Sequence record: PQ438393.1
Strand: one strand, 5' to 3'
Source of the DNA: Escherichia phage vB_Eco_J-01
Length of the DNA: 64,000 nt
Positions 50,743 through 52,097 of the stretch are shown piece after piece. Within the stretch, counting starts at the first letter, position 1, and every line of letters begins with the position of its first letter. Made by a program: the position numbers and the translations under genes. The notes beneath the pieces are model-generated. The model saw nothing but the letters and a program-made list of their open reading frames with translations. It did not search any database and was not told where the DNA came from.

Positions 50743-51297
50743 ATGGGTTTTGATGATATGTTATTATATGAGGAGGCTTGTGTGAAAGAAGCTATGGCTT
50801 TACCAGTTTTATCTATTGATATTACAACAGTAGACACTTTTTCAGATTGTGAAACGTGTGGATCGTATTCATCTATTGTACATGAAGTCTGTGGGGATTT
50901 AGGCACTTACGAAGATGGAGATTATGCAAGTTGTTTAGGTGATAATCAAGATGGTGAAGTGGCAAATGTTGCAAACTGGATTGTTTCTAAGTTAAAAGAA
51001 AGAAATCGTCCGTTCCCTAATCTTCTTACACCAGAAGCTATGCTTAAAGCTGAAGAAGAGATGTATGATTATGGTGATAAAGTAGCTCATGATTATAATG
51101 ATCCTAATTATAAAAAATTGAGTGATAAGTATTGGGAACTAGCTAATGCTTATGATAAATACTATTCTACAGAAAACATTGTTAAATTGTTTTTAGATTT
51201 TGGAGTAGAAATTAATTGGGACTTCGAAGAGGAAGAGCGTTACGACGCATCTTCTTGGGATGATGATTACGAAGAGGATATTGAATGCGAAGAGTAA
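50743..51297 (+). CDS. highly acidic protein
   Basis: track ORF trimmed to ATG after GGAGG; very D/E-rich; stop overlaps Sir2-like start. Confidence 0.5.
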   Translation: MGFDDMLLYEEACVKEAMALPVLSIDITTVDTFSDCETCGSYSSIVHEVCGDLGTYEDGDYASCLGDNQDGEVANVANWIVSKLKERNRPFPNLLTPEAMLKAEEEMYDYGDKVAHDYNDPNYKKLSDKYWELANAYDKYYSTENIVKLFLDFGVEINWDFEEEERYDASSWDDDYEEDIECEE

Positions 51298-52097
51298 TTT
51301 TTGTTAGTGGCGCAGGTTTAAGTGCAGACAGTGGGATTCGAACGTTCCGAACAGACACAGATAGTGGTCGTGCCTTGTGGGAAGAATATGATTTAGAAGA
51401 GGTCTGCGATATTGGAGCTTTCCAAGCAGGTTATCGTGTGAGAACATCTCCAGATCTTCCAGTGGTCGGTGGTGTAGACGAGAACGGTATGGACTTGTAT
51501 GCCAAAACACACGAGTTTTATAACAAAAGACGTGTTGAGCTTAAAGATGTACAACCTAATGCTGCACATATTCAAATAGCAAAGTGGTTTAAGGAATATC
51601 CTAACCAAGTAGTAAACTTGACAACAAACGTCGATGATCTACTAGAGCGAGCAGGTGTAGACAGGGATTCTGTTATTCACGTGCACGGATATCTTCCTGA
51701 AGTAGTTTACCGTATGCATCCTGGAGATTACAAAACACTGGTAGATATTGGTTACAACAGTATAAACATTGATGATTATAACTGGGTGAAGCCTAATGTT
51801 GTGTTTTTTGGTGAGGCTGCACCTTTGTATGCAGATATGGCTCACTTGTTTGATACTTTGACCATGCAAGATTTGGTTGTTGTGGTGGGATGTTCAAACC
51901 AAGTTATCAATTTTAATTGGGAATTATTCCCTGCACTTAGTATGGGTACAAAAATGATTGTTATTAACCCAGGAATTAATTACGAAGAAACTCTTCTTTA
52001 CGAAGATAGAGGAGTCTTTGTTTATCGAGAAAAGGCCGCAGATGCTTTTAGCAATCCTGCTTTCATAAAAATGATAGAAGATCATTTGACTAAATAA
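51285..52097 (+). CDS. Sir2-family protein (sirtuin-like NAD-binding domain)
   Basis: N-terminal sirtuin signature GAGLSADSGIRTFR; HG present; no CxxC...CxxC zinc-ribbon pairs. Confidence 0.7.
   Translation: MRRVIFVSGAGLSADSGIRTFRTDTDSGRALWEEYDLEEVCDIGAFQAGYRVRTSPDLPVVGGVDENGMDLYAKTHEFYNKRRVELKDVQPNAAHIQIAKWFKEYPNQVVNLTTNVDDLLERAGVDRDSVIHVHGYLPEVVYRMHPGDYKTLVDIGYNSINIDDYNWVKPNVVFFGEAAPLYADMAHLFDTLTMQDLVVVVGCSNQVINFNWELFPALSMGTKMIVINPGINYEETLLYEDRGVFVYREKAADAFSNPAFIKMIEDHLTK

Follow-up and report, generated by a model that had tools for sequence, protein, structure and literature searches.

A zinc-less Sir2-family protein encoded behind a highly acidic protein in the phi92-like Escherichia phage vB_Eco_J-01

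Phage-encoded sirtuins were described as a 'distinct clade' by Iyer et al. 2022 (PMC9503650), who link the clade with RNA ligase, kinase, 2H, Nudix and phosphoesterase genes (section 3.7.3) and, because Sir2 lies among RNA-repair genes in other phages, predict an RNA 2'-phosphate substrate and a KptA-like role in RNA repair. Skliros et al. 2016 (PMC5107563) reported a Sir2/CobB protein without a zinc site in the Vibrio phages KVP40 and phiSt2 and discussed its link to the phage NAMPT. Among cellular sirtuins, Y92 and R95 of CobB are reported to be important for desuccinylation (PMC6636992), and the zinc module is considered necessary for canonical deacetylase activity, while the defense sirtuins of the SIR2_2 family lack the entire zinc-binding beta-module (PMC12700824). 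The NARP1 pathway of nicotinamide adenine dinucleotide (NAD+) reconstitution has been described by Osterman et al. (10.1101/2024.02.11.579819). The present analysis concerns a Sir2-family gene and the acidic-protein gene that precedes it in Escherichia phage vB_Eco_J-01 (PQ438393.1); the window, meaning the whole stretch of DNA analyzed, is 64,000 nucleotides long. Its source is a phi92-like phage of E. coli in the genus Justusliebigvirus (Stephanstirmvirinae), and the DNA at 50000-52500 is 97-98% identical to that of phages KMB37, ALITA and PaulScherrer (Bas60), among others. The records of these relatives already label the gene as a sirtuin, a Sir2-like protein or an NAD-dependent deacetylase. 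The gene, the zinc loss and the clade have thus all been described before, and the finding itself is not new; the sole undescribed detail is a subfamily-restricted acidic partner with a putative Cys-knuckle, together with a conserved promoter-hairpin unit.

The Sir2 protein: family, zinc site and active site

The two genes at the center of the analysis are as follows.

51285..52097, plus strand: zinc-less Sir2-family gene, 270 residues from an ATG start; PHROG 2162, ortholog of T5.102
50743..51297, plus strand: gene for a highly acidic protein, 184 residues from an ATG; PHROG 9509 (no assigned function)

An earlier sequence-only reading of this DNA had recognized the 270-residue open reading frame (ORF) as Sir2-like, and family assignment bears this out. 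The protein, which begins MRRVIFVSGAGLSADSGIRTFR, matches Pfam SIR2 (PF02146) with an expectation value (E) of 1.3e-22 (81 bits, cutoff 24) and PHROG 2162, 'Sir2 (NAD-dependent deacetylase)', with E 3.6e-105 over its full length (residues 1-269); matches at these values are far beyond chance. PF02146 is the sole Pfam family matched at E<=0.1, SIR2_2 being among those not matched. Other features of the superfamily are present, namely a Rossmann large domain with a small domain, the GAG NAD loop, the catalytic His and the Asn/Asp residues. The NAD-binding signature GAGLSADSGIRTFR occupies residues 9-22, and the key positions are G9-A-G11, F21, R22, C41, Y79, R82, N115, D117, H134, F175-G-E177 and N228.

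Homologues occur in 983 phage records and span at least nine phage lineages at 30-75% identity, with 47-75% to T5-like, rV5-like, Mydo/PVP-SE1 and Klebsiella phage proteins and 30-40% to those of KVP40-like phages, BF and G17. The protein carries an insertion of ~26 residues (47-72) that it shares with T5-like members only. Acidity is uniform in the family (median net charge -13, isoelectric point (pI) about 5). Because codon differences from Bas60 comprise 19 synonymous and only 3 non-synonymous changes, the gene appears to be under strong purifying selection. Profile match, phage context and a zinc-less small domain together place the protein in the phage Sir2-like family (the PHROG 2162/T5.102 clade).

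Loss of the paired CxxC motifs, the second claim of the earlier reading, is equally clear. The protein has two cysteines, C41 and C203, with none in residues 135-170 or between H134 and K169-PNVVFFGE. Aligned with CobB and with zinc-containing relatives from metagenomes, the protein has Y143..H146 at the position of the first CxxC, the first zinc cysteine of CobB falling on Y143, and the segment bearing the second CxxC cluster is deleted; the Cys4 zinc site of the small-domain beta-module is absent. An AlphaFold2 model built on a 54-sequence alignment (mean pLDDT (predicted local distance difference test) score 90.4) still places beta-strands at 135-143 and 151-154. As modeled, then, the beta-module is kept and the zinc ligands alone are lost.

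The same holds across the clade. Zinc cysteines are lacking in all nine aligned phage clades (Justusliebigvirus, Phapecoctavirus, T5-like Stitch, 7-11, Mydo, rV5, KVP40-like R11Z, Serratia BF and G17). A survey of 150 representatives at the 50% clustering level found no CxxC pair, and 0-2 stray cysteines each, in the 14 with a readable segment among the nearest 19; from E about 6e-33 on, many relatives carry CxxC...CxxC around a common 'DIGY' motif. As these zinc-containing relatives have the same small-domain 'DIGY' motif, the pattern points to ligand loss inside the canonical sirtuin lineage. Two contigs gave the genomic context of zinc-containing relatives, one phage-like and one cellular (Mollicutes-like). 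On the cellular one, a metagenomic contig, the gene adjoins that of a lipoate-protein ligase (LplA), and the gene called there, translated with table 11, does not yield the query, which suggests an alternative, Mollicutes-like genetic code.

Structural comparison bears directly on the proposal that zinc loss makes the protein more like the defense SIR2 NADases, and it runs against that proposal. E. coli CobB (1S5P) is the best match in the PDB by sequence (E 1.3e-18), followed by Sir2Af and SIRT5, and Foldseek with the AlphaFold model also ranks CobB first (E 1e-17, target TM 0.84), followed by Sir2Af1/2 and SIRT5, with no defense sirtuin in the top 50. Among further structural neighbors, SirTM (14.8-14.9) and SIRT6 (14.4) score above SIR2-HerA (PsSIR2, 13.1), and Nezha (12.4), ThsA (11.7) and Avs5 (10.3 and 9.5) lie lower still, so that the defense sirtuins are the farthest of all. 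The PADLOC models gave a single marginal match (13.8 bits) and no defense SIR2 profile, and neither a profile match nor a sensor or partner domain of the defense type was found. A defense-like NADase or toxin restrained by the acidic protein, as a toxin-antitoxin-like or superinfection-exclusion pair, is accordingly very improbable. It would suit the missing zinc ligands, a superficial likeness to the SIR2_2 defense sirtuins (PMC12700824), the overlapping acidic gene upstream in one transcription unit, and the NARP1 genes elsewhere in the genome, which could offset NAD+ loss. Besides the profile and structural results, however, the protein is a stand-alone 270 residues without a sensor domain, and about 850 phage records, seven other clades and Klebsiella phage KP13-26 retain Sir2 and lack the acidic gene; Sir2 is therefore evidently not toxic alone.

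Resemblance to CobB does not extend to orthology. The sequence-only reading had named clear orthology to housekeeping CobB as the finding that would overturn it, and none was found: identity to CobB is about 28-29%, and scores against the NCBIfam CobB models (equivalogs NF040867, NF001755 and others) fall far below the cutoffs (106.6 vs 243; 86.6 vs 320). These values effectively refute a housekeeping ortholog or a recent capture. That the gene was captured recently from a host cobB, or that it is an inactive copy in decay, is hardly credible even with E. coli CobB as the best match in both sequence and fold, as the clade is spread over many phage lineages, the catalytic residues are invariant and synonymous changes prevail.

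The active site is conserved in detail. Over 54 homologues (54-91% identity), the invariant residues are G9-A-G11, S13, S16, F21, R22, C41, Y79, R82, R83, N115, D117, H134, K169-P-N-V, F174, F175, E177, N228 and P229. With the CobB numbering of the HMMER alignment set by the mutation names in PDB titles (A76G, Y92A, I131, V187Y), Y79 and R82 align with CobB Y92 and R95, and C41 with CobB A76. The Tyr-x-x-Arg acyl-carboxylate pair of class III (CobB/SIRT5-type) enzymes thus appears to be present. Because the active-site residues are invariant and synonymous changes outnumber non-synonymous ones 19:3, the enzyme looks active, and it looks to be built as a class III deacylase.

The reading that we tentatively favor is that Sir2 could well be an early-expressed NAD+-dependent lysine deacylase with the canonical fold of the CobB/SIRT5 type. 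Family, predicted fold, residue conservation, gene order and phylogenetic distribution are the observations behind it, and from these we infer an enzymatic activity and its substrates. The protein, which represents in Justusliebigvirus the widespread 'Sir2-like' phage orthologs (T5.102, PHROG 2162), has lost the four zinc ligands; beta-strands of the small domain, NAD+ pocket, catalytic His/Asn/Asp and class III Tyr/Arg pair are all kept. It would be produced early, probably from a host sigma-70 promoter, and would remove acyl-lysine marks from host or phage proteins in a deacetylase- or desuccinylase-type reaction, yielding nicotinamide and O-acyl-ADP-ribose. The acidity of the family mildly favors protein substrates over RNA.

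Several points weigh against a deacylase. The zinc module is held to be necessary for deacetylation (PMC12700824), yet every ligand is gone here. In place of the TQNID Gln stands an invariant Thr (T114, giving TTNVD), and other phage clades have Thr, Ala, Ser or Met at this position. Deacylation and ADP-ribosyl transfer cannot be told apart from the conserved residues. The clade occurs in RNA-repair neighborhoods in rV5, Mydo, BF and G17, in keeping with the RNA 2'-phosphate prediction of Iyer et al. (PMC9503650). No phage Sir2 studied biochemically or genetically turned up in a literature search, and the substrate is putative only.

The acidic protein and the shared transcription unit

The elements that flank the two genes are listed in map order.

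50660..50689, plus strand: sigma-70 consensus promoter-like site, TTGACA, 18-nt spacer with TG, TATAAT (12/12)
50705..50725, plus strand: GC-rich hairpin, AAAGCCCC-AATCA-GGGGCTTT followed by ATTTGTG, between the promoter-like site and the acidic gene
50734-50739, plus strand: GGAGGA ribosome-binding site of the acidic gene
52105..52122, plus strand: hairpin resembling an intrinsic terminator, AAGGGGC-GAAA-GCCCCTT and then TTTCTT, immediately past the Sir2 stop codon

The upstream protein is strongly acidic, as the earlier reading had stated: 47 D+E against 13 K+R give a net charge of -34 and a pI of 4.05, the largest absolute net charge among the ~98 ORFs of the window and the third by charge per residue. 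Its invariant residues include C36-E-T-C39-G, S63-C64 and C182. An AlphaFold model (5 sequences, pLDDT 84) has a helix at the N-terminus, a beta-sheet in which the CxxC sits at a hairpin, and a helical bundle, with a disordered, hyper-acidic C-terminal tail at residues 167-184. A sub-threshold match to the L32 zinc ribbon (E 0.0032, 17.7 bits vs a cutoff of 22.6) hints that C36xxC39 may form a knuckle. The 'putative' aminoacyl-tRNA synthetase label that the protein carries in Bas60 was not upheld, there being no significant synthetase domain or fold match.

The distribution of the acidic protein is far narrower than that of Sir2 (136 vs 983 phage records). It occurs in Justusliebigvirus, in Phapecoctavirus (about 36% identity) and in some Klebsiella relatives; BF-like jumbo phages give weak matches, to a gene about 36 kb from Sir2. 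A hidden Markov model of the acidic family found nothing at E<=10 beside Sir2 in the T5-like, rV5, Mydo, BF, KVP40-like, G17, 7-11 and metagenomic contig loci. KP13-26, a member of the same subfamily with a Sir2 that is 75% identical, has the acidic gene deleted: between the terminator of the ORF202 homologue and Sir2 (2378-2500 of that locus) stands a short ORF of ~21 codons, just upstream of Sir2, whose first ~17 residues (MNYQDMINYQTQCVLNS) resemble the acidic N-terminus. Codon differences from Bas60 in the acidic gene number 9 synonymous and 10 non-synonymous, and the protein appears to evolve faster than Sir2. The acidic protein thus seems restricted to Stephanstirmvirinae, and because Sir2 is kept without it in other clades and in KP13-26, it is an accessory specific to this lineage, on which Sir2 does not depend as on an obligate subunit. 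The persistence of zinc-less Sir2 without it in seven clades and KP13-26 likewise disfavors the idea that it supplies the zinc module in trans.

The earlier claim that the two genes are coupled stands in part. The Sir2 ATG (51285) precedes the TAA of the acidic gene (51295-51297) in a stop/start overlap of 13 nt, with an AGAGGA ribosome-binding site 6 nt upstream of the ATG, and both adjacency and overlap are kept in Phapecoctavirus vB_EcoM_01. About half of the adjacent gene pairs in the surrounding block overlap in the same way, and the overlap was therefore rejected as a sign of special coupling; the narrow distribution of the acidic gene, its absence beside Sir2 in seven other clades and its deletion in KP13-26 also speak against a tight pairing. 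A -1 frameshift fusion of the two ORFs was likewise discarded, as the 13-nt overlap has no slippery heptamer. The Sir2 start of phage 7-11 is directly overlapped by another gene, that of a DNA methyltransferase.

The promoter-like site falls within the final codons and the stop of ORF202, which lies upstream. It is the sole 12/12 match in 47.5-53.5 kb, where promoter-like sites in total are no more numerous than in shuffled sequence. Promoter and hairpin are identical in Bas60; Phapecoctavirus vB_EcoM_01 has TTGACA-18-TATAGT, and an equivalent hairpin is found in Phapecoctavirus and KP13-26. The hairpin at 50705-50725 could be a terminator of the upstream transcript, a 5' stem-loop or stabilizer, or an attenuator. 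It lies downstream of the perfect promoter, so that transcripts cross it before reaching the acidic gene. Rfam returned nothing in 50.6-52.2 kb. Promoter, hairpin, acidic gene, Sir2 and terminator would together form one unit, its arrangement apparently conserved across two genera, and the conserved sigma-70 consensus site upstream suggests early transcription by the host RNA polymerase, a timing that we infer. The acidic protein would then be a faster-evolving accessory of the subfamily, co-transcribed and probably translationally coupled with Sir2 and dispensable for it; any contact between the two proteins is conjectural, and the acidic one might serve as a regulator or a targeting subunit, or might act independently against the host.

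Further hairpins lie around the unit. Near-identical 20-nt GC-rich palindromic hairpins at 48472-48491 and 52846-52865 (AAACCCGCTTCGGCGGGTTT and AAACCCGCCGAAGCGGGTTT) are mutual reverse complements that differ solely in a 4-nt loop and look like a reused bidirectional terminator module. A strong bidirectional hairpin at 52467-52496 marks a strand switch, and the GC skew flips at about 52 kb.

RNA-repair and NAD+ genes in this and other phages

The genes elsewhere in the window that bear on the function of Sir2 are the following.

10391-13136, minus strand: cluster of 16 tRNA genes (ARAGORN), three of them tRNA-Met(CAT)
13883-15616, minus strand: NAPRTase-family (Namat-like) gene; NAPRTase match, Bas60 annotation concurs
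15688-16581, minus strand: Prs-like (Adps-like) gene; Pribosyltran and Pribosyl_synth matches, Bas60 annotation concurs
19476-21400, plus strand: RNA-repair cassette of calcineurin-like phosphoesterase, T4 Rnl1-type RNA ligase and polynucleotide kinase (PNK)
22060-23223: ATP-dependent DNA ligase after the RNA-repair cassette, by correspondence with the Bas60 annotation
46054-46800: second phosphoesterase, 4.5 kb upstream and the nearest phosphoesterase to Sir2

The phage does carry an NAD+ reconstitution module, as the earlier reading had it: the adjacent Prs-like and NAPRTase-family genes at 13883-16581 on the minus strand, which adjoin the tRNA cluster, have the Prs-like/Nampt-like arrangement of a NARP1-type pair. 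The further suggestion, that module and sirtuin manipulate NAD/ADP-ribose signaling in both directions, is not needed. Homologues of the Prs-like protein, taken as the proxy for NARP1, occur in 1338 phage records with a taxonomic spread largely unlike that of Sir2, and an obligatory Sir2-NARP1 link was rejected because the distributions differ. An extra tRNA-like match at 12808-12886 comes from Rfam and is not on the ARAGORN list.

Other phages place Sir2 in varied company. In rV5, an annotated phosphoesterase and PNK stand beside an unannotated 304-residue ORF in the RNA-ligase position, after which comes Sir2; in Mydo, the order is phosphoesterase, RNA ligase, Sir2, DNA ligase. Serratia phage BF has a 148-residue protein annotated as 'RNA ligase', possibly a 2H-type protein by its size, then Sir2 and Nudix; a cytidyltransferase (NMNAT-like) and Nampt stand upstream of Sir2 (1812-7671 of that locus), so that the BF gene stands inside an NAD-salvage block. 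In G17, a Nudix hydrolase gene directly follows Sir2 (5965-7265 of that locus). Mydo, rV5 and BF thus have Sir2 among RNA-repair and NAD-salvage genes, and the neighborhood described by Iyer et al. (adjacent RNA ligase, kinase, 2H, Nudix, HAD or phosphoesterase genes) is recognizable in rV5, Mydo, BF and G17. It is not found around the present gene, where the cassette lies ~30 kb from Sir2, and no RNA ligase adjoins Sir2 in the T5-like (Stitch), 7-11 and KVP40-like loci. Neither the RNA-repair link nor the NARP1 link therefore appears obligatory.

These neighborhoods are the basis on which Iyer et al. 2022 (PMC9503650) proposed a KptA/Tpt1-like enzyme, one that would use NAD+ to place ADP-ribose on an RNA 2'-phosphate. 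Such an enzyme would clean tRNA ends after attack by host anticodon nucleases, together with the phage RNA ligase, kinase and phosphoesterase. Conserved neighborhoods reported in PMC9503650 and seen again in rV5, Mydo, BF and G17 speak for it, as does the gene content of the window, with its RNA ligase, PNK and calcineurin-like phosphoesterase (19.5-21.4 kb), second phosphoesterase and 16 tRNAs. Here, however, Sir2 has its own promoter/terminator unit away from the cassette, other loci lack an adjoining ligase, the family is strongly acidic, unlike nucleic-acid enzymes, and close clades retain the Tyr/Arg acyl-carboxylate pair typical of protein desuccinylases. RNA repair of the T4 Pnkp/Rnl1 type, moreover, leaves no 2'-phosphate. 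Taken together, a role in RNA repair is unlikely, if still worth weighing.

A mono-ADP-ribosyltransferase that serves host takeover in the manner of T4 Alt/ModA/ModB, acting on host RNA polymerase, translation factors, defense proteins or nucleic acids, is less probable again. It would agree with the putative early sigma-70 promoter, with the combined loss of zinc and of the TQNID Gln, which may signal changed chemistry, and with the Nudix genes that follow Sir2 in jumbo phages. Against it, the catalytic His of deacylation is invariant, Sir2 is closer to dedicated deacylases than to SirTM, and no macrodomain partner is at hand: Pfam gave no macrodomain match in the five ORFs scanned at 48967-52396 (the small ORF at 49954-50079 lay outside the scan), and the acidic protein has no macrodomain fold match of the kind expected for a SirTM-macrodomain pair. 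There is a modest chance, and a doubtful one, that the zinc-less clade has shifted to chemistry new for sirtuins, either KptA-like removal of RNA 2'-phosphates or the writing or erasing of ADP-ribose, with the acidic Cys-knuckle protein of Stephanstirmvirinae (C36xxC39, C64, C182) as a dedicated regulatory or targeting subunit.

Other cargo of the window includes a Dcm-like C5 cytosine methyltransferase at 48967-49956 on the plus strand (Pfam E 2e-43), three annotated genes upstream of the acidic/Sir2 pair (two full-size ORFs and a 41-codon ORF), and, farther upstream, a putative N6-adenine methyltransferase at 43247-43756 on the plus strand. Four successive ORFs of 329, 289, 184 and 276 residues at 36630-39891 on the plus strand match in order and length the Bas60 genes annotated RmlB, RmlA, RmlC and RmlD of the dTDP-rhamnose pathway, unusual phage cargo. 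Among related records, MG065639, MG065645, MG065650 and MG065692 are entered as 'Campylobacter phage' A150, A145, B15 and C13 with C. jejuni as the stated host. Their DNA is up to 97% identical to that of E. coli Stephanstirmvirinae (A150, A145) and their Sir2 protein 99% identical, with the exception of C13, whose Sir2 is only 52% identical and resembles the T5-like group; the host labels of all four look doubtful.

Comparison with known sirtuin systems

Some thousand sequenced phages that infect enterobacteria and vibrios, in T5-like, rV5-like, phi92-like, KVP40-like and jumbo groups, appear to keep Sir2 under strong purifying selection. Were the protein a deacylase, bacterial lysine acylation would have an eraser encoded by a virus; were it to act on RNA, or as an ADP-ribosyltransferase, the chemistry known for sirtuins would be extended. 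The locus itself adds little, since the gene is annotated, the zinc loss published and the likeness to defense NADases fails.

Within the T5.102/PHROG 2162 clade, every member compared is zinc-less and has the same catalytic residues. The Sir2 of this subfamily differs in standing apart from RNA ligase and NAD-salvage genes (compare Mydo, rV5 and BF) and behind a lineage-specific acidic gene.

E. coli CobB and human SIRT5, class III sirtuin deacylases, are among the closest known enzymes. Shared with them are the best sequence and Foldseek matches, the GAGxSxxSGIRTFR motif, the catalytic His, Asn and Asp, the Tyr/Arg pair and a small residue at the position of CobB A76 (C41 in the phage). Unlike them, the phage protein lacks the zinc ligands (Y143 at the first, the second cluster deleted), has TTNVD for TQNID and an extra small-domain insertion, shows 28-29% identity with scores below the NCBIfam cutoffs, and is phage-encoded.

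The defense SIR2 NADases (ThsA, DSR1/2, SIR2-HerA/Nezha, SPARSA and Avs5; SIR2_2) have in common with it the use of NAD+, the Rossmann core, the catalytic Asn/His and the absence of zinc. They lack the beta-module, whereas the phage protein keeps it, and they carry sensor or oligomerization domains, whereas the phage protein is a stand-alone 270 residues. From SirTM, the macrodomain-linked ADP-ribosylating sirtuins, it is set apart by a partner that is not a macrodomain, by its retained catalytic His and by an identity of 11-14%.

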